A DNA stretch of 64,000 bases from Escherichia coli 042 (GCF_000027125.1 NC_017626.1), one strand, 5' to 3'. Shown: positions 3,384 to 33,200, counted from the stretch's first letter. Program-made: numbers and translations. Notes: a model not told the origin generated them from the letters alone.

Positions 3384-3746
3384 GGGGCTGATTCTGGATT
3401 CGACGGGATTTGCGAAACCCAAGGTGCATGCCGAGGGGCGGTTGGCCTCGTAAAAAGCCGCAAAAAATAGTCGCAAACGACGAAAACTACGCTTTAGCAG
3501 CTTAATAACCTGCTTAGAGCCCTCTCTCCCTAGCCTCCGCTCTTAGGACGGGGATCAAGAGAGGTCAAACCCAAAAGAGATCGCGTGGAAGCCCTGCCTG
3601 GGGTTGAAGCGTTAAAACTTAATCAGGCTAGTTTGTTAGTGGCGTGTCCGTCCGCAGCTGGCAAGCGAATGTAAAGACTGACTAAGCATGTAGTACCGAG
3701 GACGTAGGAATTTCGGACGCGGGTTCAACTCCCGCCAGCTCCACCA
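3384..3746 (+). ncRNA. ssrA: tmRNA (SsrA), 363 nt
   Basis: Starts GGGGCTGATTCTGGATTCGACGGGATTTGCG. It contains the tag reading frame gcaaacgacgaaaactacgctttagcagcttaa (ANDENYALAA*). It ends in the tRNA-like T-arm cgcgggttcaactcccgccagctccacca. Confidence 0.98.
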
Positions 3747-9516: not shown

Positions 9517-9621
9517 AATTACTTTTCCTTCTAGTTGTCAAAAACATGGAATACAATTAAAAAAGGAAAAGGTCAAACCATAGGCAGAAGGTTGAATACT
9601 TTTTATTCCAGATTAAATAAC

Positions 9622-9695
9622 GCAGCGCGAGATGATTGTTCAAAACAATCACATTGCTGGAACAGGGTTCATCCCTGTTAATGATAGGATTCATC
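9622..9695 (+). repeat. twin-hairpin element copy R1 (candidate oriT/recombination site)
   Basis: gcagcgcgagaTGATTGTTcaaAACAATCAcattgctggAACAGGGttcatCCCTGTTaatgataggattcatc. It is repeated at 24950-25023, with 3 substitutions plus 1 indel over the 62-63 nt core. Confidence 0.85.
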
Positions 9696-9937
9696 TCAAA
9701 AAATGATGTTTTGGTTTTAAAAATATGATATTAGTAAGCTCAAAATAAAAACATGCAACACATACGAATGCAGTCACTAACATTAATTACCTGATACTCT
9801 CCGCGTTACTTATTTTATTGAATCAATGAAAACAATTTTACCTCTTGCTTTTTGACTCTGATTTCTGGTCTTAACCTGTGAATTGTGCAACACATAAAAG
9901 TATTTATAATTTTCACTATTTATTTTAAATTCTGCTT

Positions 9938-10276
9938 TCCCGCCTTACGGCGAGAGACTAATTTAACTACTTTTGCCCTTACGGGCGTTTTCTAAACACC
10001 AGAATCCAATATTATTATCCTACCTCAACCGTTTATCCGATTCCTACCTTTTTAATTTCACAGTCTGTAAAACTAGAGCTATTATTTAACTATAGAAAAA
10101 CATAAAACATTGTCGTTATTTTTAGCTCCTTTAGGAGATATAAAAATAAAGCAATGCCCACCTATACACTGCTACGCAGTGTGTGGGGTCTACCGACGGT
10201 TGCCTGCCGCAGGCTAACACCGTTTCCTTCGGAAACAAGGTCAACGTCAACACCAGAGTTTTTCTTACGAAAAACT
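9938..10276. other. hairpin-rich region upstream of the relaxase gene (candidate oriT / ssDNA-structure region)
   Basis: CGCCttacGGCG (9941-9952). GCCCttacGGGC (9975-9986). ACACTGCtacGCAGTGT (10166-10182). Nested ACGGT-tGCCTGccgCAGGCtaac-ACCGT (10196-10223). GTTTCCttcGGAAAC (10222-10236). AGTTTTTCttacGAAAAACT (10257-10276). The TTAC loop recurs. Confidence 0.45.
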
Positions 10277-10351
10277 AAAACCAGCTGAGTCGTATTGGAG
10301 ATTTATATTTTGGTTTGATATTTAAATTTATTTTGAGGTTGTTTTTATTAT

Positions 10352-17097: not shown

Positions 17098-17505
17098 ATG
17101 TCTGATGCTTTAAAGATCATCAACAATATTCGTACTCTCCGTGCTCAGGCTCGTGAACTGACACTCGAAACCTTGGAAGAGATGTTAGAAAAACTCACTA
17201 TCGTTGTAGAAGAACGTCGTGAAGAAGAGGCCTCATTTCTAAAACAGCAGGAAGAGAAACAGGCCAAGCTGGAAGCATTCCGTCAGAAGTTGTTGGAAGA
17301 TGGCATAGACCCGGCAGAGTTGCTTTCAACTGTTAGCCCATCTTCTTCCAAGACAGGAGCGAAACGCGCCCCACGTCCAGCTAAGTATAAATATGTTGAT
17401 ACCGATGGTTCGGAAAAGACGTGGACAGGTCAGGGCCGAACTCCTCGTGCTATCGCTGCTGCGCTCGAAGCCGGTAAGACACTGGAAGATTTCGAGATCA
17501 AGTAA
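17098..17505 (+). CDS. H-NS family nucleoid-associated protein (island-encoded full-length paralogue)
   Basis: [44 protein letters not shown]... is the N-terminal oligomerisation domain. The C-terminal DNA-binding motif is [17 protein letters not shown]. 135 aa. It is distinct from the core stpA at 50350-50754. Confidence 0.92.
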
Positions 17506-18324: not shown

Positions 18325-19578
18325 TTATTCACTTGCCTGAGTCGCTCTTGTCGCATTTGTTTTTAAATTATTCAGCATTTGCTTATCAACCGGTTGCAGT
18401 TGTTGTCCTAACAGAGCCGCAAGCAAAATATTTGTGTCTTCTGTTCTTTCGATTTGAAGCATTTGTAATCTTAAATCAAGTGCCTGCATTCTTGCCTGCT
18501 CATGCGCAGTTTCTTTTTCATCAGCACTACTGATTTTTACCTGCCAAGCGTCAGCACCTGTTGTATCTGCATAGCGTGAATAGATCTCATATCTTAACAT
18601 TTCCCACTCTGAAGGATTATCCGGGAATGTTGTGCCGGGAAATAAGGTCGCATACTTGTTTTTTACGGAAGCATCTGACCAAGCAAGGTTTGCTCCCTGC
18701 GTAGAGCCCAATGTGGATCCTATTTTGGCCCCTCTGGAGTTCACTGATATATTACTTGCTTTTTTCATTGCCAGTACGGAATCAATGGCGTTTGTTCCAG
18801 CAGTGCTTCTGGAGACAAAGCTCGAAAAGGCCGATAAATATTCTCGACCTTCATTTGTGTCTTCTAATCCTTTGTTCTTCAATGGTTCAACGGGCAAGTT
18901 CCCTATAAGATTTCTTTTTGCCGCTTCAGCAACCTCAATCTGCTCAACAGAATAGGACTGATTCGAAACCTTATTAGACAATGCATCGGATTTAGATAAT
19001 GGTGGTGTAATCAGGCTTGATGCCGACTTATCTTTATCAGGATACTGACCTATAGTATTACACCCACCTCTGTTATATTTCACATCATCTTCGGAGCAAA
19101 CATTTATTGATACTCTGCCCATGATGTTTTTCTTGGCCTCATTTATTCTGGTATTTGCTTGTGTAAACATCTTAACGCTGTTTTCAGATAAAGCCTCTTT
19201 AGCTGAGCTTGTATTCGATCCTGCTGCACCACGACCACCTGCGCTCGTGACTTCTTCACAGGCGTTGGCATCAGGTATTCTGTTTAAGATATTTTTCATG
19301 CGCTGTTCTTGGATTGCCTGACTGGCATTACTGACAACCGCATTCTTCTGATTCTCACTGGCTGTTATGGTTGCTTGTGCCAGCTTGTCGTTCATTGAGA
19401 CTAATGTTTCAATTATTCCATTGCCCATAGATTGGGGTGAAGCCCCCATAAGATACGGTGTCAAAACCTCTTCTGTGACGGGCCAGACAGCGAAAGCTGT
19501 ATTTGTATATAATACAGAAAAACACAAAGCTGAAACCACTGTTATTCTCTTTACTTTAAATTTATTATTACTCATCAC
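18325..19578 (-). CDS. secreted/periplasmic protein, unknown (possibly IcmX/TraW-like partner of the TraY-like protein)
   Basis: 417 aa with signal peptide MMSNNKFKVKRITVVSALCFSVLYTNTAFA|V. It is Cys-containing, Ser/Asn/Ala-rich and has a C-terminal coiled coil. The functional guess rests only on neighbourhood and general features. Confidence 0.6.
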   Translation of the reverse strand: MMSNNKFKVKRITVVSALCFSVLYTNTAFAVWPVTEEVLTPYLMGASPQSMGNGIIETLVSMNDKLAQATITASENQKNAVVSNASQAIQEQRMKNILNRIPDANACEEVTSAGGRGAAGSNTSSAKEALSENSVKMFTQANTRINEAKKNIMGRVSINVCSEDDVKYNRGGCNTIGQYPDKDKSASSLITPPLSKSDALSNKVSNQSYSVEQIEVAEAAKRNLIGNLPVEPLKNKGLEDTNEGREYLSAFSSFVSRSTAGTNAIDSVLAMKKASNISVNSRGAKIGSTLGSTQGANLAWSDASVKNKYATLFPGTTFPDNPSEWEMLRYEIYSRYADTTGADAWQVKISSADEKETAHEQARMQALDLRLQMLQIERTEDTNILLAALLGQQLQPVDKQMLNNLKTNATRATQASE

Positions 19579-19924
19579 AACACTCCTGTTAACTTATTAC
19601 CTTCTTTATTATTTAACCAATTAAATATGAACTGTCAATTTTAACAAAAATATTCATCTGGCATCCAACTTTAAAATTATTATAAAAGAAGCGTATAAAT
19701 CCAACGAAGTAGATTCCATGAACTAGCGTGGTGCTTTTATAGCTTTATCGATGAAGATAGATAGCATGAAATAACTTTACTTTTACGGGAGCATAAAACT
19801 TTATAAAAGTAATGTTTCCATTCAAAAAAGCCGTAGCAATATTTTATTTTAGATGCAGCCATTTCAACTTTGTTTATAAGAAAAAATATAAAGTGAGTTT
19901 CATTGCAGATAATAATCAGTTAGA

Positions 19925-19944
19925 AAGAGGACCGAAGCCCTCTT
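19925..19944 (-). terminator. UUCG-loop hairpin after the TraY-like gene
   Basis: The minus strand reads AGAGGGCttcgGTCCTCTttct, starting about 5 nt after the stop at 19949. Confidence 0.6.
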
Positions 19945-19948
19945 AATA

Positions 19949-22609
19949 TCACATTCCATCATTACCTTCTTTTGATGATGAACTACCACCGGAAGATCCA
20001 CTACCGCTCCCTTTCTCTGGAGCCTTAAAGCTTTCAATTGGTGAAGCTTGGGCCTGTAAACTTACAGGCAGCAACGGTCTGTTATGTTCACCAAACGATA
20101 CCGCTCTGTTAGCAGCCTTTTGAGCTACATTCATATAACCTGCTGCGCCTGCTGTATCACCAATAGCATCTGCTGCCTCAGCTGCATGGTAAGCCGAGTT
20201 AGCACTTTCAAGAGACTGATATTCATCCTGCTGATCAAGTGGGCCAGCATTACTCATATGAGTTCTGAATGCAGATCCCGTATCATTGGCTTTATTAGCC
20301 GCCAGTGCTTTCCCCTGTTGAGCCTGTTGCTGTTGTTGAAGCTCACGTTGCTGTTCACGGTCTTTGTTAATTTGCGCATTCCTGATCTGATTACCCATCG
20401 CATTTGAGGTATGGGAAACCTGATCCAACACGGTTTTGGTAAACATAGCACCTTCAACACCTTTTGATGCCGACTGTGCGTAACCCGACATGCTCTGACC
20501 ACCATGAACACCAAGCCACTTCATAATTTCATCAGGGATGATGTGAATCAGTGAAAGTGATTTCTTCACTACCGTGAACATCATTGCAATATAAACAGCA
20601 ATGAGAGCCAGTGACTCGATGATACCTATCCCGGCATTGGCTGACATCATGCCAAAAGCGCCGGAGAATGTTTCGTTGACGATCCCACCAAGGATAGGGA
20701 GCATCGTATAGGCTGCTATTAATCCTGTTATCATTAGCGCTGGTCGCATGGTTAACGATAAAACCAGACCATAACCAGCGCCACCACGACCCACTACGCC
20801 ATCACCATCTGGATGTAAATGTGTTATTACCCATAATGGTGCTGCGACCATTGCTTCAAGGCACAGGATCATCCAGCCTACGCAAACACCAAACCACATG
20901 ACGTAAGGCAGCATAGGAATGACGACGGCTAAAGTATCGCCAGCTATCCATAAAGGGATAACCAGTGGCATAACAATCCCCATAGCGCCAAATGCACCCG
21001 ATACCCAGCTTGCAGTCGCTGATGTCCATGCGCCAAGACCTGCCCCAACAACAGCAGAACTCCCTAATAACGTCCAGCCAGCGGCACTGATCGTATCCCC
21101 AAGCCCTTTAACAGCTAATAACGGGTTTATTGCCTGTAAATTGGCAGCGGTTGTGTCCGTCGAGAACGAGACGATTTTCCCTTGTTTTCTTCCATTGATA
21201 ACGCTGGAACTGAGAAAACCCGCCATTGCACCAGAAATGCTCTTATTGGCTTCACTTTGAAGAGAAGAAACTATTTTTCCAGCATCATCTGTTTTAGGGC
21301 CTACACCACTTTTACCACTGGTATTGGCTTCCGTTCGGTTTTGCGCATCAATACCATTCGCATATCTTGAAGCTGTCGTTGATTTCGCCATATCTTGAGC
21401 CACTTTTGCCATAATCGCGTTCAGGCTGTTATCGAATATATCTCCGTATTCCATTGTCGCTTGCCCGGCTACAGGAAGATTATGAGCTGCTCCATTAATC
21501 GCATCCTGCACACGGATCAGTTTCATACTCCATGCGCCAGCCATAAACCATCCGTCTTTCTGGACATTCTCTTTGAAATCATCCCACTGGTCGCCAGTGG
21601 AGAAAACTGTTCGTACTGCAGTATCAATAATGGATACATATGAGGCCGTTGCGCTGTTTATTCCGGTCTGAATATCAATATTATTATCGGCCACATACTG
21701 TTCAGCCAGCGTTTTCATACTATTATCAAGGCCGATAAATGCGGCATTGTGTGCCTCAATAACATCTGAAATATTCGTCTTTATATCCTGTGGCATATAA
21801 GCCATATACATGCCGCCAGCAGCAATGGTAGCCTGAGCTTTAGCCTGTTCGTCATAAGAAGCTTTGGCCTTCGGGTCTGTAAGCGTGATGCTTCCACATG
21901 CAGCCTTGGATACCAGTAAATTTTTATTCATATCATTACCGGCATTGCTGGCTCCATAACTGTATGTGTATAAATAGGCACCTTTCTCCGGTGTCATTTC
22001 AAACGCAGGCGTGACGTGCGGGAAGGGATCGGCTGCTGCTGATTTCTTCCATAATTCTCCCGCCTTTAACATACAGACGTTATTGATAAAGGCGGTTTTC
22101 GCTATGCGATCAAGCTCCTGATAAGATGCAGATGTGGTAATAACAGCCCCATCTGAGGGGTTGGATGCATAGGTATTCCAGACGGTATCTGCCAGACCGA
22201 CTCCCTGATTAATCATCCACAGCACCATAACCTGAGCGGCACAGAAACCACCTGCTGCCGGGAGTATCATTGCCGTGCCTAATGCAGTTCTTACGGGCAA
22301 CCACATGGAAGACCATTTCTTACCCAGCATTTCTCCGTCATGTGCCGTTGACATGGTTCCGGCAATCAGTGTGTAGGCAGCTAAAATGCCACCAACCAGT
22401 AAAACAGCGCTGTTAAGGATTGTCATTGTGCTGGCTAAGGGACTTTCCGCTAAATTGTCCGGGAATAAGATATCCAGAAACCACAGCTTTGATTTGTCTG
22501 TCTCCGGGACGGTAAATAAATCTGCGGCATAAGCTGACTGAGTTAATAACAGGCAAGCTAATATTACTAATAATATCGATACTTCTTTTTTCTTTATATT
22601 TATCATCAT
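19949..22609 (-). CDS. DotA/TraY-family type IVB secretion integral membrane protein (orphan)
   Basis: 886 aa with an N-terminal signal/TM. The conserved-looking block is ...TAHDGEMLGKKWSSMWLPVRTALGTAMILPAAGGFCAAQVMVLWMINQGVGLADTVW..., followed by a long periplasmic-like region, then about 6 C-terminal TM segments and a Q-rich/Gly-Ser tail. The pattern matches what I remember of IncI TraY and Legionella DotA. Confidence 0.7.
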   Translation of the reverse strand: MMINIKKKEVSILLVILACLLLTQSAYAADLFTVPETDKSKLWFLDILFPDNLAESPLASTMTILNSAVLLVGGILAAYTLIAGTMSTAHDGEMLGKKWSSMWLPVRTALGTAMILPAAGGFCAAQVMVLWMINQGVGLADTVWNTYASNPSDGAVITTSASYQELDRIAKTAFINNVCMLKAGELWKKSAAADPFPHVTPAFEMTPEKGAYLYTYSYGASNAGNDMNKNLLVSKAACGSITLTDPKAKASYDEQAKAQATIAAGGMYMAYMPQDIKTNISDVIEAHNAAFIGLDNSMKTLAEQYVADNNIDIQTGINSATASYVSIIDTAVRTVFSTGDQWDDFKENVQKDGWFMAGAWSMKLIRVQDAINGAAHNLPVAGQATMEYGDIFDNSLNAIMAKVAQDMAKSTTASRYANGIDAQNRTEANTSGKSGVGPKTDDAGKIVSSLQSEANKSISGAMAGFLSSSVINGRKQGKIVSFSTDTTAANLQAINPLLAVKGLGDTISAAGWTLLGSSAVVGAGLGAWTSATASWVSGAFGAMGIVMPLVIPLWIAGDTLAVVIPMLPYVMWFGVCVGWMILCLEAMVAAPLWVITHLHPDGDGVVGRGGAGYGLVLSLTMRPALMITGLIAAYTMLPILGGIVNETFSGAFGMMSANAGIGIIESLALIAVYIAMMFTVVKKSLSLIHIIPDEIMKWLGVHGGQSMSGYAQSASKGVEGAMFTKTVLDQVSHTSNAMGNQIRNAQINKDREQQRELQQQQQAQQGKALAANKANDTGSAFRTHMSNAGPLDQQDEYQSLESANSAYHAAEAADAIGDTAGAAGYMNVAQKAANRAVSFGEHNRPLLPVSLQAQASPIESFKAPEKGSGSGSSGGSSSSKEGNDGM

Positions 22610-23470: not shown

Positions 23471-24235
23471 CTAAATATTATCCCAATCTAACGGTTCTTC
23501 TGGTGGCACAAGACTTGTGTTCTCTACAGAAGGGATTTCATTTATACTTTCACTCTTCACTAACCCTTGAGACTTTTTAGCCTGCAATCTTGCGATTAAC
23601 AAATCTATCTCATCTTGGTTATTAACTTCTTGTATAACTGCTTCAATTGACCTGTTTTTATCTTTAAGTATGCTATTGCCACCGCCATTGACGACTATGC
23701 TTTCGGGTTGTTCTTCCATTGCTTCTTTCTTTTTTATAATCTCTGATACAAAGCGAGCACGATCACCATTGAAGACAATAGCAGGGTTTATGAAATACCA
23801 GTTTTTCTCATTGGTTTTAGCAATAATACGTTTTTCGATGAGTTCTTTGATACCTCTGTAAAAGATAGATTCAGACAAAACAAAGTGATCTATCTTTTCC
23901 GCAAGAGACATTGCCTTTTTACAGCTCAGGTAGAAATGATCTTTGCCTATCGCATCCTGATATATTCGTAAAAATATGAAAAACACTTTGTATGCTGTTT
24001 TCGTGAGATCAAAATATGCTTTTATCTGAGAGGTATAGAGTTTAATGAACTCTTCTTTATCGACCTCTTGTGTATGCACGATATTGGCGAAGTAGCTTTT
24101 ACCTGTATCTTTCTTTTCGATAAGTTCTGTGCCTCTTGAAACGGTCAGATTTTTCTTTCGTGTTTCAATCTTTAGCTCTGTCTCAAAGCAAAAAGGATTT
24201 AACCCTAAATCTAAGTCAACGTCTATTTCATTCAT
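23471..24235 (-). CDS. RepL-like winged-helix protein (candidate replication initiator/regulator) 1
   Basis: 254 aa. ...FVLSESIFYRGIKELIEKRIIAKTNEKNWYFINPAIVFNGDRARF... resembles the RepL-family pattern (wHTH followed by 'y.iNP...f.G'). A 4-unit iteron array lies 170-250 bp upstream. Confidence 0.55.
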   Translation of the reverse strand: MNEIDVDLDLGLNPFCFETELKIETRKKNLTVSRGTELIEKKDTGKSYFANIVHTQEVDKEEFIKLYTSQIKAYFDLTKTAYKVFFIFLRIYQDAIGKDHFYLSCKKAMSLAEKIDHFVLSESIFYRGIKELIEKRIIAKTNEKNWYFINPAIVFNGDRARFVSEIIKKKEAMEEQPESIVVNGGGNSILKDKNRSIEAVIQEVNNQDEIDLLIARLQAKKSQGLVKSESINEIPSVENTSLVPPEEPLDWDNI

Positions 24236-24401
24236 TTCATTATTACCTCTTGTTGTTTTATTTATAATAAATTAAATACCATGCACAAAAAAGATATCAA
24301 GTTTTTTGCATATTTTTTTGCGAAAATATTTTCAAAATCGCAACTATTCCAGTGACGATACTTTAAAGCACTGTCGTTTTTAAGCTAAAAATGACATAGA
24401 A

Positions 24402-24483
24402 ACTGACTGCAAAGTCAGGAAAGCTCACCGTGCAGTCAGGAATACTGACTATAGAGTCAGGAACACTGACTGTACGGTCAGTC
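24402..24483. repeat. iteron array 1: four tandem 20-21 bp units, each an inverted repeat ACTGAC-N5-AGTCAGGA
   Basis: ACTGACtgcaaAGTCAGGAa / gctcaccgtgcAGTCAGGAat / ACTGACtatagAGTCAGGAac / ACTGACtgtacGGTCAGTCgt. Unit starts are at 24402, 24423, 24443 and 24463. Confidence 0.85.
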
Positions 24484-24949
24484 GTATATTTTCGTTCTAA
24501 GCCTTATGCCGTAAGGGCTACAGGCCGGTTTTTTCTTAATTTAATTTTGCAAGAAGTAAGAGATAATACTTAATAGGATTAAAAGAAACCGGGCGATTTT
24601 TATAATCGCCATACAGGGTTTCAATATTTTAAATGATTAGTTTTTTTGAGTGCAATATTTATTTTTATTGCGAAGCATTTCTTTCTATTTCACTAACATC
24701 TTTTTTTTGAAAATCACCACCATCTATGAGCTGAAGCTCATGTGCTGACGCACGGCTACGCCCTAACTCTGAAATATGTATTTTTATCTTGATGAGGTGT
24801 CTTATTAATATTGATAGTAAAAAGAGGAAAGATCTTTTCCAGATCATTTCATCATAAAAAACAAAATTGATCCTATGTTTGAACATAGCATTACCGCAAT
24901 AACATATAGCATTTTCCCTTAAACGAATAGGAAAATTATATTTTCAGTA

Positions 24950-25023
24950 GCAGCACTTAGTGATTGTTCAAGACAATCACATTGCTGGAACAGGGTTCAT
25001 CCCTGTCAATGATGGATTTATCC
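24950..25023 (+). repeat. twin-hairpin element copy R2
   Basis: gcagcacttagTGATTGTTcaagACAATCAcattgctggAACAGGGttcatCCCTGTcaatgatggatttatcc. It has the same orientation as R1 (9622-9695). Confidence 0.85.
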
Positions 25024-25090
25024 ATAAAGAATTGCGGCGATAGCCGCTATGAAATAAAGGAGAAACAATTTCATCTGTACTCATATATAA

Positions 25091-25128
25091 GCAGTGCTAA
25101 GTGATTGTTTAAAACAATCACTTCGCTG
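25091..25128 (+). repeat. partial copy R3 (first hairpin only)
   Basis: gcagtgctaaGTGATTGTTtaaAACAATCACttcgctg. It shares the gcag-N7 leader, the 9-bp-stem hairpin and the CA(c/t)T(t/c)GCTG tail. It lacks the AACAGGG/CCCTGTT hairpin. Confidence 0.7.
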
Positions 25129-25166
25129 TAATAACATTATAGTAAAAATAAAATAGGTAGCACAAG

Positions 25167-25311
25167 GTGCCATTTTCATAAGGCACAAATGAGTTTCATA
25201 GCAAAACGTTTCTGGATAGATCAATTAAGAAATATTTCAATACAATTCATCCTTCATTGCTGAAAACCTCCAACGCCATTCATAAAACAGCAGGTGCCAT
25301 TCAACAGGCAC
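25167..25311. repeat. two copies of a GGTGCC-N8-10-GGCAC inverted repeat
   Basis: aaGGTGCCattttcataaGGCACaaa (about 25165-25190) and caGGTGCCattcaacaGGCACaca (about 25291-25314). Confidence 0.6.
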
Positions 25312-25391
25312 ACATTCCCTTTTACTATATTAAACTTATTACTATATTACAGCTGTTATTTCTCATATAAAACAACATATTACAGAAAAAA

Positions 25392-25485
25392 GGTTATAGG
25401 TTCCTATAACTATGGTTATCGATATCTATAACTCGGATTATAGTTTACTATAACCATAATTAGCAAAAACTATAACTATAGTTCC
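25392..25485. repeat. iteron array 2: about 8 copies of CTATAAC/GTTATAG with roughly 21-23 bp periodicity
   Basis: aGGTTATAGgttcCTATAACtatGGTTATcgatatCTATAACtcggATTATAGtttaCTATAACcataattagcaaaaaCTATAACTATAGtt. Direct copies start at 25404, 25425, 25448 and 25470. The array lies 200-300 bp upstream of the second RepL-like gene. Confidence 0.8.
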
Positions 25486-25692
25486 GCACTGAAACTAATC
25501 TTTAAAACTGGCGAGCATTCCACTCTCAATAAACTTATTCCAGTCACGAATCAATAACGGCTTCAATTTATCCTGTTCTGTGGATGGTTTTCCACTATAT
25601 TAAAACTTTTTCCACTTATTTTTGACTTTGTTATTGACCATAGTGTTTAATCTGTTATGTATTAATAAAAACAATAACAAAAGGAAAATACA

Positions 25693-26391
25693 ATGACACA
25701 AATAGATTTTCAATCTCTTAGCAGTTTATCCCCCTTTCAGCTAACACAGTATATTGATGATCATCTTTTCACTAATGAACAGAAAGTGCAGATATTCGAA
25801 CATTATCACAGCACACATAAAGACACTACCAATATCTATTCGAGAAAAGAAAACATTAAATCTATTAAAAAAGATGTTGATTATGTCCATATGTTCACAA
25901 AAAACTTCCAGCAACTCGCAGAACTTGATATTTCCAAGAATGAGTTGAAGGTTATCGCAAGGATTTTAAACATCATGGAGTTTGGAAACTGCTTTCATAT
26001 ATCGCAAGCAAAGCTATGCCGCGACTTAGATATTAAAAAATCAAATATGTCTCTTGTCTTTAAAAAGCTCAAAAAGAAAGGGATCATTATTGATAAAGAT
26101 GGAGATCTCTTTATGAACTCCAACATATTTCTTAAGGGACAAGCGCATTCTATCAATGCCAAACAACGCCCTAATGTTAAAAAGGCACAGGGATTTAACG
26201 CTAATAATGAACCAGTATTTGATAATGTTTATACATTTAATCAAACAAATGATTCTGACAATCAACCTACAGAAGGAATGACTACATCTGAGCCACCAAA
26301 AACATCTGATAGCTGTTCTAACAAAGAAACAGATCCAGCACTGACGCTGCAGTATCCTAAAACAGAAGAGCCAGCTTATGATGATGTTTAA
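25693..26391 (+). CDS. RepL-like winged-helix protein (candidate replication initiator/regulator) 2
   Basis: 232 aa. ...ISKNELKVIARILNIMEFGNCFHISQAKLCRDLDIKKSNMSLVFKKLKKKGIIIDKDGDLFMNSNIFLKGQA... shows the same wHTH plus 'mNsNif.kG' pattern. It is divergent from RepL-like 1 across 1.46 kb of repeats. Confidence 0.5.
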   Translation: MTQIDFQSLSSLSPFQLTQYIDDHLFTNEQKVQIFEHYHSTHKDTTNIYSRKENIKSIKKDVDYVHMFTKNFQQLAELDISKNELKVIARILNIMEFGNCFHISQAKLCRDLDIKKSNMSLVFKKLKKKGIIIDKDGDLFMNSNIFLKGQAHSINAKQRPNVKKAQGFNANNEPVFDNVYTFNQTNDSDNQPTEGMTTSEPPKTSDSCSNKETDPALTLQYPKTEEPAYDDV

Positions 26392-26422: not shown

Positions 26423-26689
26423 CTACTGCCAGTCAATGAGATCCTCTGGTGATATCCTATCCTTCTCCATCAATTTGAGGATCTTTTTCATTTTTAACTT
26501 ACGTGCCTTTTTCTCACCAATCTCCTGATAGTATTCTTCCCGCCGTTCCGCTACTACCTTGCGGAACTTCTTCAAGAGTTTGTTCAATGTCTTTATATCA
26601 GTGGTAGCCGCTTCAGCTTGGATTTTTCTATACATATACATAACGTGGAATTCATCAATCATATTAAACCTCTTAGTTTTATCATTCAT
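26423..26689 (-). CDS. truncated H-NS family protein (H-NST-like; oligomerisation domain only)
   Basis: 88 aa from ATG 26689 (SD gaGGGAaatcac). ...IKTLNKLLKKFRKVVAERREEYYQEIGEKKARKLKMKKILKLMEKDRISPEDLI parallels H-NS ...[19 protein letters not shown]...LIADGIDPNELL. There is no [12 protein letters not shown]-binding domain. Confidence 0.65.
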   Translation of the reverse strand: MNDKTKRFNMIDEFHVMYMYRKIQAEAATTDIKTLNKLLKKFRKVVAERREEYYQEIGEKKARKLKMKKILKLMEKDRISPEDLIDWQ

Positions 26690-26731
26690 GTGATTTCCCT
26701 CTTTCGAGGGAATACTCATTACATCTAAATA

Positions 26732-29521: not shown

Positions 29522-29889
29522 TTTTTCCTCAACTCATTCACAGCAATTTGCGGAAGCGTCAATACTGACTTAAGACTTACTTCAATTCGACTGATGATTG
29601 CTTCTCGTGGGCCACTACGCCAACCCGCACTTGCGTAGAAATCATCAAGAATGCTTTTCATCTGTTCTTCACTTTCAAAAGCCCGTATGAGGTAGTAGCT
29701 GTCAGCATCGTGCAGAGAGTTTCCATACGCAACCACATCTATACCGTTCCGGGTATGAAGTGGAACACTGACTTCATACATGATCTGATGGAACTCCTCA
29801 CCAGAATCTTTTTTCAGGGTGTATTGTAGTATTTCGACGATCCTATCCTTCATACCTTCTCCATCAATGACCATGAGAAACTGTTTCAA
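29518..29889 (-). CDS. NIPSNAP-like / dimeric alpha-beta barrel protein
   Basis: ...DRIVEILQYTLKKDSGEEFHQIMYEVSVPLHTRNGIDVVAYGNSLHDADSYYLIRAFESEEQMKSILDDFYASAGWRSG... fits the NIPSNAP-type pattern as I remember it. The start may be an internal Met. Confidence 0.5.
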   Translation of the reverse strand: MKQFLMVIDGEGMKDRIVEILQYTLKKDSGEEFHQIMYEVSVPLHTRNGIDVVAYGNSLHDADSYYLIRAFESEEQMKSILDDFYASAGWRSGPREAIISRIEVSLKSVLTLPQIAVNELRKK

Positions 29890-30248
29890 TGACGCTAACG
29901 CATTCGGTAGGTTAAATGAAGAAAAGCTGACGCAGAGGATGTGAGTTCAACTTCGAGTAGGTAGCTGAACTGTTGAATGTGTTATCTTTCAGCATTGTTT
30001 GACGTCAAACGTTCAGCAGTTTCGCTAAATGGTTCCACAATTGAACCCTTAATTAAAAATTAAATCAAAATTCCAATATAAATCAATTTATTAAAGCACT
30101 AATTACAGGGACGCCAGCCAATCATGATTGGACGGTGCAAGGACAACACCAACAAAAACAGGAAGTTAGAAGTCTCAGCAAGACACCGACCAGACGGTGA
30201 GGAGACATAAAAGGATACGCAAAGGAGCCGCGGCTCCTGGTGATATGA

Positions 30249-30272
30249 AAGCCCACAGATGTGGGCTTTTTC
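30249..30272 (+). terminator. intrinsic terminator (plus-strand orientation), abutting the ypjA stop
   Basis: aAGCCCACagatGTGGGCTttttcg. The T-run is on the plus strand only. Confidence 0.7.
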
Positions 30273-30280
30273 GTTGATGG

Positions 30281-33200
30281 TTAGAACGACCAGTTCACAC
30301 CAGCTACCGCGTTCCACGGGGATTCCACACCGGCACCATGGCTATACCCCACCCCGAGATGCCCGCTTAATGAACTGCTGAATGAGGCTTTAATACCTGC
30401 CTGGTATATTCCACGTCTGCCCGACAAATCATTGACAAAATTACCGTCATTATTCACTTTCACCCGGTTATCATCGACAAATTCTTTGCGCACAGCCGCC
30501 TTCAGCCACGGCTCAACTTCCATACCGTTCCCCAGACGCATGTTGTAACTCAGCGTTGCGCCCAGTTCACGATATATACTGCGGGTATCGACTGATTTCG
30601 ATTCCATGCCATTGGATAAATGATATTCGGGGTTATCAGCGGTGAACCCCGTTAACGATGCATACGGCGTCAGGTTCCAGTTACCATCGGTAAATCGCAT
30701 CCCGGTTTCAATGTGACCGCCCAGCCCGTTGCTGCGATAACTGCCGTTGGCGGCTCCACCGCTGCTCATTTTACCGGCTACGTTACTTTCAAAACGGTTC
30801 AGCTTCACGATACCGTCCAGATAGAAACCACTTTCATGTTCCCAACTGGCATAGCCGCCCAGAGAATAACTGCCCACACTGCCATGTCCTCCGCGATCAA
30901 AACCGATATGTGAATGGGAATAACCCATAAAAGCGCCCAGCGTGGCAATTCCTTCAGGAATATCATTACGGCTGTCGATCCCCACGGTCATTCCGGTCAG
31001 CGTCTGCTCAAACCCGGCACCCGCATCGGTGGTGACATTATTACGGGTGTTATACGTCGCCCCCCAGACATTATTGTTGTGTGGACTCGCTTTCATTATG
31101 TTCAACCGCTCGCGAATACTGTTTAGCTCAGCATCAAATACCAACGGTAATGTTGCTGCCATATTGAGTACGGCTGCCGTAGAAGGCGTGATGCGTTTCT
31201 CCGGGACGGGTGTCGGCGTTGGATCGGGAGTCGGGTCTGGTTTCGGATCCGGTTTTGGGTCTGGTTTTGGATCCGGTTTCGGATTTGGGTTGGGGTCCGG
31301 GTTGGGTTTGACATCATTGGTCAGGTTCCAGTTGCTGTTGCCGTCGCTTTTCAGGACATACTCATAGGTCCCAAGATCAACGAAACCGCCGGTATTACCC
31401 AGCGTAAACGAAGCATCCCCTCCCCCTGTTTTCACCAGCGTCATCGCGTCGTCAGACTGAGGGCTGACGCCGGTATCCTGAACAAAGATTTTAAAATTAC
31501 CAGTGGCGTTGTTGTTGACGACCAGTTGATCGCCCCGGGAGCCTGCAACGTTGGTATGCAGGTAGAAATTACCGCTGCCGGAAAGTTCACTGGTGGTCAG
31601 CGTATTGTAGATACCGTTAGTTGTGGCAGGCGCTGCTGTTTGTGCTGATAAATAAACATCACCGTCGTTGAGAAGCAAACTGTTTACTCTATATTCGCAG
31701 TTGCTGGTGCCTGCACAGGAATTATTGCTGTTAAGCCAGACACTGCCCCGGCTGGCAGCCGTCAGGTCGGCAAGCGTCGTATCGACGCCATTTCCGATAG
31801 TTAATGTCGCGCTATCGGTAATCCGGACCACCCCTTCAAGTTTAACTGGCGTAACATTATCCCGTGGCGTCATTAACGACAGGCTTCCTGTCGCGCCACT
31901 GACCGATGCATCCGCCAGCGTACCTGCGTAGACGATTGCCGTCCCGCCAGCGATCAGTAGATCTTCTGCCCGGGCCAGAGCCTGAAACTCATCTTTTGAC
32001 CGACCGAGGGTATATTGCCCACCGGAATTAACCTTTGTGGCGAAGTCCTGACCCAGGTTTTGCATTGCCCCACCGTTGCCAACCGTGGAATCGCGAGCTT
32101 CGGTACCTGCTAATACCAATAAATTACCGCCATTTTCCAGCAGCACATTGGTCGCTAAATTTCCGGCAATGGAAAAGGTGCCGTACTGGTGAGTACCGCT
32201 GATTTCAATACCGTTAGCCGTGCTCGTCTGGAGAGCGGCACCGCTGTTCTGGATGATATCTGTCGCTTTGCCATTATCGTTGACTGTCAGCGTACCGCCT
32301 TCATTAATCGTTGTTTTTACTGCCTCACCGTTAGCCGAAACTGTTTGTATTCCGCCGTCGTTAATCGTTGTCTCATTCGCCACCCCCTCGACGATTTGTT
32401 CGCCGCCGGTGAGCGTCGTGCCTGTCGCAGTGGCTTTTGTTTTGACGATCTCCCGCCCGCCCGCATTGACCTGTGTTTTGGCGGAAGTGGTGTCTGACTC
32501 CACGGTTAACACGCCGCCATTTGCCAGCAGGATATTGTTCGCCGCATCCTGCTCAATGCTGAACGCGACGCCATCAGCGCGTGTCCCTGTGACCCGCGTC
32601 GCTCTGGTGGTTGCAACCAACGCGCCCTGGCTACTTTGCTGTATCCCCGTTGCGCTGCCTTTCTCCCGCACATCGAGAGTGCCGCCTTCATTAAGCACCG
32701 AGTTTTCAGCCAGACCGCCCTCATTAACTACCTGTGAACCGCCATTAATAATGGAACCTTCCGCTGTCCCGTTTACCATAATTTGTTGTAGGCCAGAGAC
32801 GATATCGGTATTGATCGCCTTACCATAATTCTGAACGGTTTGCGTACCGCCATTGATGTGCGTTTTGTCTGTTGACCCACCATCAACAATTTGTTCACCA
32901 CTTTCAATATTTGCATCAGTGGCTAAACCATATACCGTTTGCTTGCCACCTTTGATATTTGCTTTTTCAGAAGTGGCACTGGCATATATTGTTTGGGTAC
33001 CAGCACTATTAAGTACAGTACCAACATCTTTTCCATAAACATCCATTTTGCCGTTGGCATTAATAATCGTGTCAACTGCCCGGGAACCAGTGACGACTGT
33101 TAATGAGCCAGCGTTTTCCAGCACTACATTTTTAGCTTCTGAATTCCTGATGTAGAAAACATCACCATAACTGTTGGTTCCTTCGATAAGTGTTCCGGAA

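Follow-up and report, generated by a model that had tools for sequence, protein, structure and literature searches.

In the chromosome of Escherichia coli 042 (GCF_000027125.1, NC_017626.1), within a ROD21-like (EARL) mobilisable island adjoining ssrA, two divergent open reading frames (ORFs), ORF-A and ORF-B, flank a non-coding region of 1,457 bp with a G+C content of 31.9%. We analysed this locus in a stretch of 64,000 nucleotides (hereafter, the window), together with related loci from other chromosomes and plasmids, which are designated by number (L002 and so on). Each gene is preceded by its own array of four phased repeats, and the two arrays enclose a series of conserved hairpins (Table 1). 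Because the genes and arrays closely resemble the replication machinery of plasmids of the pHW126/pIGRK type, the island probably carries plasmid-derived replication origins.

Table 1 Features of the ORF-A/ORF-B region, in window coordinates
Feature	Position	Strand	Description
ORF-A	23471–24235	-	Intact ORF, 254 aa, WP_001002320.1; RepL-superfamily winged-helix protein
Array 1	24403–24481		Four 21-bp units CT(G/C)AC-N6-GTCAG(GA), 168–246 bp upstream of the ORF-A start codon
GC hairpin	24592–24610	-	GGCGATTATAAAAATCGCC; resembles a terminator on the - strand, located between Array 1 and the core
Most conserved core block	24726–24772	+	ATGAGCT-GA-AGCTCAT palindrome, GTGC-TGAC-GCAC, then CTACGCCCTAAC
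Hairpin cluster	24949–25131	+	Twin elements HP1a/HP1b, with HP2, a palindrome and a hairpin between them
Twin elements	24949–24990 and 25090–25131		81% identical, 141 bp apart
HP1a and HP1b	24960–24980 and 25101–25121	+	Both GTGATTGT-N5-ACAATCAC
HP2	24987–25006	+	GGAACAGGGTTCATCCCTGT
Palindrome	25012–25025	+	ATGGATTTATCCAT; contains the DnaA-like box (25018–25026)
Hairpin	25034–25047	+	GCGGCGATAGCCGC
GGTGCC-N-GGCAC inverted repeats	25166–25186 and 25293–25311
AT-rich stretch	25322–25386	+	TTACTATA x3.5 (TRF), then an A-run directly abutting Array 2
Array 2	25393–25476	+	Four 22-bp units GTTATnG-N4-CTATAAC, 217–300 bp upstream of the ORF-B start codon
Promoter-proximal repeats	25602–25661	+	Short ACTTTTT-type direct repeats, then the putative ORF-B promoter
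Putative ORF-B promoter	25634–25639 and 25656–25661	+	TTGACC, 16 nt, TATGTA; inferred from position only
ORF-B	25693–26391	+	Intact ORF, 232 aa, WP_000192050.1; homologue of pHW126 Rep, pIGRK RepR and pIGMS31 RepM
Third HP1+HP2 copy	9632–9678	+	In the traD–mobQ intergenic region, outside the two-gene region

Two divergent genes for Rep-type proteins

The closest experimentally studied relatives of ORF-B come from pHW126, pIGRK and pIGMS31, low-G+C plasmids of 2.3–2.9 kb that are built from REP and MOB modules (PMC6854812; bioRxiv 10.1101/2022.12.05.519187). Sequence comparison places ORF-B clearly in the pHW126 Rep family, with 36% identity to pHW126 Rep over 168 aa (E 9e-27) and 34% identity to pIGRK RepR over 171 aa (E 1.5e-23), both of which have been shown experimentally to be initiators (PMC6854812; PMC2831885). 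Its winged-helix core (residues 63–151) is followed by a variable acidic tail. Weak profile matches to HTH_36, DnaD_N and phage O-like proteins were also obtained, none of them above the Pfam or NCBIfam threshold, and ORF-B has Asn-Ser at the position of the conserved Asn-Pro of RepL.

ORF-A, in turn, retains this Asn-Pro (in an FINP motif) and carries the motif YFINPAIVFNGDR. It has no direct Pfam or NCBIfam match above threshold and no homologue in the phage collection searched. In a full HMMER scan, its family comprised 1110 representatives, typically ~200 aa long, and 32 of 61 distant members matched Pfam RepL (PF05732, the Rep of pSN2-type Firmicute plasmids), the best at 2.8e-11. ORF-A is also 56–63% identical to the sole Rep candidate of enterobacterial Rep+MobV plasmids of 2.8–2.9 kb; in the 2.87-kb plasmid L012, for instance, the identity to the coding sequence at the Rep position is 56% over 213 aa, and a MobV relaxase is the only other ORF of at least 70 aa. 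These small plasmids with an ORF-A-type protein bear the same CR element and single-strand initiation signal (ssi) as pHW126, which suggests that both Rep clades work with the same kind of origin.

A direct BLASTP comparison of ORF-A with ORF-B was not significant, and their homology was detected only profile against profile, once the plasmid Reps had been added. In that comparison, the ORF-A family profile aligned with a profile of ORF-B plus plasmid Reps over the winged-helix core (hhalign, 95% probability, E 3.7e-8), and the motifs (E/D)(F/Y)(I/V)K(L/M)(Y/F)T and F(I/M)N(P/S)..(F/I)(F/L).G are common to both families. On this profile evidence, ORF-A is a remote homologue of ORF-B. ORF-A and ORF-B themselves stay below the gathering threshold of Pfam RepL (20.3 bits), whereas relatives of both proteins pass it, including RepR, the Rep of plasmid L015 and a Pectobacterium paralogue (L003) at 22–24 bits. 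An earlier note on this DNA had described two divergent RepL-like genes; both are indeed intact and predicted to encode winged-helix proteins, and judging from these profiles, the label is justified for both at the superfamily level. Both proteins are also under purifying selection, as estimated from dN/dS values of 0.01–0.05 across the protein cores (about 0.03 for ORF-B).

Searches of the PDB with both proteins, by sequence and by profile, returned nothing significant. Acidic C-terminal tails with one or two aromatic or hydrophobic residues were observed in ORF-A, ORF-B and all plasmid Reps compared, with ends that include PLDWDNI (in ORF-A), AYDDV, LFEEAE, NFEFGFESEI and NFDLIFDEQN. The tail looks like a common short motif, possibly for recruitment of a host replication factor.

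Phased arrays and a conserved hairpin core

Upstream of ORF-A, the four tandem inverted-repeat units proposed in the earlier note were recovered with a corrected geometry, namely a spacing of exactly 21 bp (sites at 24403, 24424, 24445 and 24466), an N6 rather than N5 spacer, and half-sites of 5 bp. All four matches to CT[G/C]AC-N6-GTCAG in the window fall in this array, to which Tandem Repeats Finder (TRF) assigned a period of 21, 3.9 copies and a score of 87. The CTATAAC/GTTATAG motifs upstream of ORF-B likewise proved to form an array, of four 22-bp units, in which the left half-site of unit 4 is degenerate and the invariant CTATAAC half recurs at 25404, 25426, 25448 and 25470. The window contains six CTATAAC matches in all, five of which fall in this array.

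Both arrays are conserved in a manner that separates half-sites from the sequence between them. Array 1 is kept in all loci with an ORF-A of 83% identity or more (Pectobacterium, Kluyvera, Serratia, Enterobacter and Salmonella), and its variable positions comprise 9 of 24 in the spacers versus 2 of 40 in the half-sites (Fisher p=0.0015), the latter two being a symmetric pair (CTTAC...GTAAG). In Array 2, CTATAAC is unchanged across seven loci and the linkers and spacers vary. The half-sites are constrained and the spacers free. Across more distant loci, the array sequence co-varies with its Rep protein: four diverged ORF-B relatives each have a different array of about four units at 21–23 bp, for example GTTTCC-N4-GGAAAC at 21 bp in the Klebsiella island L002 (ORF-B relative 33% identical), GTTATG-N5-CATAAC at 22 bp in Erwinia (61% identical), and CTATGTTCGAACATAG at 23 bp beside an extra paralogue in Pectobacterium colocasium (44% identical). 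No clear four-unit array was found beside the diverged ORF-A relative in L010 or the RepL-type gene in L022, and the arrays are therefore not universal. In Pectobacterium colocasium (L003, 1888–6696), three REP-type modules were observed in a row: ORF-A with Array 1, the ORF-B paralogue (44%) with a CTATG array and a hairpin pair, and ORF-B with a GTTATT-type array.

Both arrays are far upstream of the promoter regions (~155 bp for ORF-B), a position occupied in pIGRK by the origin and not by an operator (PMC6854812). The order of AT-rich repeat, A-run and array seen at Array 2 is the same in L006 and L023. Closer to the ORF-B gene, AAACTTTTTCCACTT...TTATTGAC aligns at the DNA level with the DR1-3/-35 region of pIGRK and pHW126 (pattern AAACTTTTTCyACTT...TATTGAC); promoter-proximal short repeats of the pIGRK/pHW126 type were not evident for ORF-A.

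Arrays of this kind could in principle serve partition or incompatibility instead, as centromere-like or decoy sites that would segregate the excised circle or displace related small plasmids. Phased palindromic arrays bound by dimers also typify centromeres, and incompatibility is expressed by the pIGRK origin itself (PMC6854812). The homology of both proteins, however, is to initiators, and the RefSeq annotation of the island includes no ParA- or ParM-type NTPase, so that we consider a partition role highly improbable. Between the two possibilities raised in the earlier note, a dual replicon of small-plasmid origin is thus the one supported, because both proteins belong to the RepL superfamily, have their own arrays, and have relatives that are the sole Rep candidates of 2.3–2.9 kb plasmids; a Rep paired with a partition regulator is not.

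Between the arrays, the twin-hairpin elements and the two GGTGCC...GGCAC inverted repeats reported previously are present. The HP1 pattern gave 0 matches in 100 shuffles, i.e., it has no chance expectation, and its stems are unchanged across loci with variable loops. In Pectobacterium colocasium, every ORF-B-type module has its own pair of HP1 palindromes. Folded as single-stranded DNA, the core (24720–25140) forms a string of hairpins (z=-7.3), and an Rfam scan detected no known RNA family in the region, its only match being a spurious snoRNA (E 0.7). The DnaA-box-like TTATCCATA is also there, shifted by one base from the position stated in the earlier note, but fails as an argument for an origin because it occurs at chance level: 16 DnaA-like boxes with at most one mismatch in the 64 kb predict ~0.4 in the intergenic region.

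Core positions 24725–25156 are 79% identical to the Klebsiella island L002, in which ORF-A is absent, and the most conserved block is invariant there, though the neighbouring Rep proteins are only 33% identical. This block is also found in L003, L004 and L007–9. Intergenic divergence is ~0.16, versus 0.23–0.57 at synonymous sites of the flanking genes. Within the block, CTACGCCCTAAC (24756–24767) matches the CR of the pHW126 family, CTACTCTCTAAC, at 10 of 12 positions, and the CR-like pattern occurs once in the 64 kb; since the pattern was defined after both sequences were seen, the match is only suggestive. Among 5426 complete E. coli genomes, 780 (14%) contain the core, in up to six places per genome, and no annotated feature lies under it in any of them. 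In uropathogenic E. coli (UPEC-455U; L022, 3001–4348), the core is followed by a gene for a 185-aa protein that RefSeq names RepL and that has no BLASTP similarity to ORF-B. DUF4756 and H-NS come next, an order shared with the Klebsiella and Salmonella Enteritidis loci. Given that a different RepL gene follows the same core in UPEC, the core looks constant and the Rep-plus-array units look like exchangeable cassettes.

The third copy of HP1 and HP2 lies in the intergenic region between traD and mobQ (window 9517–10351), which is 98% identical to that of the Klebsiella plasmid-borne island (the relaxases are 76% identical) and contains GC-rich inverted repeats at about 10155–10262 that are a likely oriT. 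This bears on a different interpretation, in which the region between ORF-A and ORF-B would be the oriT of the island or another transfer-associated site: MobQ would nick the conserved block, with ORF-A and ORF-B as accessory proteins of the relaxosome and the hairpins as priming sites for the complementary strand in the recipient. The ACG/CCCT of the conserved block resembles MOBQ nic regions, and a nic site was our first reading of the block; it was given less weight because the intergenic region of traD and mobQ is the canonical candidate for oriT and is also better conserved. Conservation of the core independently of Rep type and the HP1+HP2 copy next to mobQ would both fit a transfer site, and the authors of a study of ROD21 suggested, because transcription is low, that oriT may lie in this region (PMC10655114). 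Yet the usual position of oriT, between the divergent traD and mobQ, is 14 kb away and comes with GC-rich inverted repeats of its own. In addition, the homologues of ORF-A and ORF-B are Rep proteins and not known accessory proteins, and pHW126-type plasmids keep the REP module apart from the MOB module (bioRxiv 10.1101/2022.12.05.519187). We therefore consider a role as oriT improbable, and return to replication as the function suggested by the homology of the two proteins.

Probable replication modules of the pHW126 type and their possible activity

In the REP module of pIGRK, an ssi-like palindrome, a CR of ~20 bp and four 20-bp iterons with 2-nt spacers are followed by an inverted repeat, three 9-bp direct repeats and repR; in a two-plasmid assay, the origin corresponded to CR plus iterons, and RepR dimers both bind this origin and autoregulate (PMC6854812). 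Several features of the island follow this layout. Rep homology is direct for ORF-B and established via L012 and hhalign for ORF-A, and the proteins are of the winged-helix type without HUH or Rep_trans motifs. The iterons of pIGRK, pHW126 and plasmid L015, four at a 22-bp period between -220 and -130 from the ATG, are also partial palindromes (GTTGTC-N6-GTCAAC, GTTATG-N6-CATAAC), and are comparable to Array 2 (4 x 22 bp, -300 to -217 of ORF-B) and Array 1 (4 x 21 bp, -246 to -168 of ORF-A). Short direct repeats and a TATTGAC -35 region beside the ORF-B gene, a G+C content of about 31–32% and an acidic, aromatic C-terminal tail are further points of likeness, as are AT-rich short repeats upstream of Array 2, where pIGRK and pHW126 have CTTAG-type repeats and CR.

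The differences are also substantial. The island modules reside in a chromosomal island of ~26 kb and not in a 2–3 kb plasmid, two of them face each other (three are present in Pectobacterium L003), and about 85 extra bp separate the island iterons from the promoter repeats. Neither the canonical CR CTACTCTCTAAC nor the plasmid ssi was found next to either array, the hairpin block is without sequence similarity to the plasmid ssi, and blastn-short of the small plasmids against the island gave no non-coding similarity beyond short words.

The view of the earlier note that these are iteron-type replicons holds in so far as each gene has its own four-unit array with a period of two helical turns in a pIGRK/pHW126-like position; its analogy with classical theta replicons does not. 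Rolling-circle or mixed replication has been reported for modules of the pHW126 type: pHW126 itself behaves like a rolling-circle plasmid (PMC2831885), and both theta and rolling-circle intermediates were seen for pIGMS31, the RepM of which nicks DNA in vitro (bioRxiv 10.1101/2022.12.05.519187). No match to Rep_3 was obtained, and the AT-rich stretch beside Array 2 is the likeness to the classical theta type. An array beside an AT-rich stretch is also found at ori-lambda, where four dyad iterons are bound by dimers of the winged-helix N-terminal domain of O. The matches of the island proteins to Phage_rep_O and 'O-like' profiles are weak and all below threshold, and unlike in lambda there is no O C-terminal domain or P-like loader, and the candidate origins are not inside a gene.

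Taken together, this leads us to favour, with modest confidence, an interpretation in which the locus consists of two head-to-head REP modules of the pHW126/pIGRK type (RepL superfamily) that are able to drive conditional replication. Dimers of each winged-helix protein would bind their own four iterons, two helical turns apart and ~170–300 bp upstream of the gene. As in pIGRK, the bound iterons and a nearby conserved element would then start replication by nicking or melting, with the CR-like block and the AT-rich stretch as candidate start elements. The hairpin cluster may act as a single-strand initiation signal serving lagging-strand priming, and the short repeats at the promoter may mediate autoregulation. 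The modules would be silent in the integrated island and fire only under certain conditions, namely upon excision, following transfer or in the presence of a helper plasmid, which would keep the circular form of the island from being lost.

Several observations weigh against such activity. Island DNA was not found as a free plasmid in PLSDB, where the single partial DNA match was the related island L002 integrated in a 310-kb Klebsiella plasmid. Among complete E. coli genomes, it is chromosomal in all 163 that match the 3.2-kb region by megablast (and on an E. coli plasmid in none) and in all 780 with the core. pHW126 becomes unstable once it exceeds about 5 kb (PMC2831885), an unfavourable precedent for a circle of 26 kb. 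The CR-like 12-mer, a match defined post hoc, lies ~270 bp from Array 1 and ~625 bp from Array 2. At the protein level, neither ORF-A nor ORF-B matches Pfam RepL at E<=0.1, and AlphaFold2 models built from alignments of close homologues were too poor to use (pLDDT 41 and 47). Finally, in the only published experiment on SEN1990, the apparent counterpart of ORF-B in the Salmonella Enteritidis island ROD21, deletion of the gene changed neither the copy number of the island (~1 per chromosome) nor the amount of attP, and Hoppe-Elsholz et al. 2023 judged the gene not to be involved in replication (PMC10655114). It is the absence of free plasmids, the SEN1990 result and the size limit of pHW126 that hold our confidence in conditional replication only a little above even. 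The active replicon considered in the earlier note is thus not supported, since island DNA is only chromosomal or megaplasmid-integrated in the collections searched and SEN1990 deletion lacks a replication phenotype.

SEN1990 is the apparent counterpart of ORF-B by position, location of the winged helix-turn-helix and downstream gene order, not by sequence comparison; it also has a long upstream non-coding region and the RefSeq name 'RepL'. ROD21 differs in appearing to have a rep-DUF4756-H-NS arrangement, as in L002 and L018. Wild-type ROD21 had no replication to lose and only 3% excision (PMC10655114), and the deletion therefore did not probe origin capacity. The text of that study mentions repeats, palindromes, iterons, pHW126 and pIGRK 0 times each. 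The deletion did alter the expression of oafB and slightly raise that of SEN1991 (PMC10655114), which would be expected if the two proteins were domesticated, Rep-derived transcription factors that are no longer initiators. The arrays would then be cooperative operator or enhancer sites, through which dimers would regulate the genes that encode them, other island genes nearby and possibly genes of the chromosome, for instance oafB. RepR and RepR' of pIGRK are themselves autorepressors (PMC6854812), and an island that was never seen as a plasmid in the collections searched would also fit this scenario. Against it, the arrays are well upstream of the promoters, at the position of the pIGRK origin iterons, with operator-like repeats that are separate and conserved; a full origin-type set of cis-elements is under constraint across genera; and the oafB effect concerns a single gene in one study. 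Overall, we regard domestication as unlikely, if to be taken seriously, and retain conditional replication as the preferred interpretation.

A broader and rather doubtful possibility, which we raise tentatively, is that ROD21-like islands carry a modular, swappable multi-replicon, in which a constant hairpin core would be shared by interchangeable Rep-plus-iteron cassettes (two here and three in Pectobacterium, with a third RepL clade in UPEC). That core would comprise a CR-like site for nicking or initiation together with twin hairpins of the ssi-like kind, one copy of which is also placed at oriT. If this were true, co-resident islands could avoid incompatibility, replication would be tied to conjugative transfer or to the entry of a helper plasmid, and it would be the assay conditions alone that led to the published conclusion of no self-replication in this family.

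The host island and its biology

A near-identical locus, NZ_OZ547150.1, is annotated in RefSeq as part of a ~26-kb island next to ssrA that encodes an integrase, TraD, a MobQ relaxase, a SEN1982-family lipoprotein, two H-NS-type proteins, TraW, DotA/TraY, an AlpA-type regulator and DUF6387, which is the gene set of ROD21-like (EARL) mobilisable islands (PMC6035254). The hallmarks used for this assignment, i.e., a P4-type integrase, an AlpA-type recombination directionality factor, a MobQ relaxase with TraD, H-NS homologues, and insertion at a tRNA or tmRNA gene, were found through the annotation of that identical locus together with profile matches to AlpA, the H-NS N-terminal domain and DUF6387. 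In the window, the left island end abuts ssrA (3384–3746), and a search for attR at the right end (29850–30900) found no direct repeat of at least 12 nt of the ssrA 3' end. The Klebsiella island L002 (CP110748.1, 123703–140133), a ROD21-like island with its own integrase, sits inside a 310-kb conjugative IncFIB/IncHI1B plasmid.

Directly downstream of ORF-B and convergent with it, a 98-aa ORF (26423–26719) corresponds to a truncated H-NS with only the N-terminal domain, and a full-length H-NS paralogue is located further left (17098–17505); either H-NS-type protein could silence or unsilence the AT-rich replication region. TraW and DotA/TraY (18325–22609; the latter 886 aa, TIGR04346 at 2e-125) are the only annotated type IVB secretion genes of the island. 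As TraY is the target of entry exclusion in IncI plasmids, the island may remodel the mating apparatus of an IncI-type helper.

Integrated elements with their own initiator and iteron origin that fire after excision or helper entry include SGI1 (rep/oriV), SaPI/PICI (rep-ori) and PLE (RepA). Their initiator families (Rep_3, Pri-Rep and RepA_N) are unrelated to ORF-A and ORF-B, and their replication is proven and its trigger known. The protein family, the iteron-type origin, islands with their own replicons and the RefSeq name 'RepL' for SEN1990 were already known. New here are the two arrays, the co-variation of array and protein, and the specific homology to the experimentally dissected origins of the pHW126 family, and together these observations reopen the published negative conclusion on SEN1990. 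Islands of the ROD21-like kind are widespread in Escherichia, Salmonella, Klebsiella and plant pathogens, and how they survive between excision and re-integration is a question on which such REP modules would bear. If the modules are active, this island family would join SGI1, PICIs and PLEs as integrated elements with conditional replication, and a poorly understood Rep family would be extended to much larger replicons.

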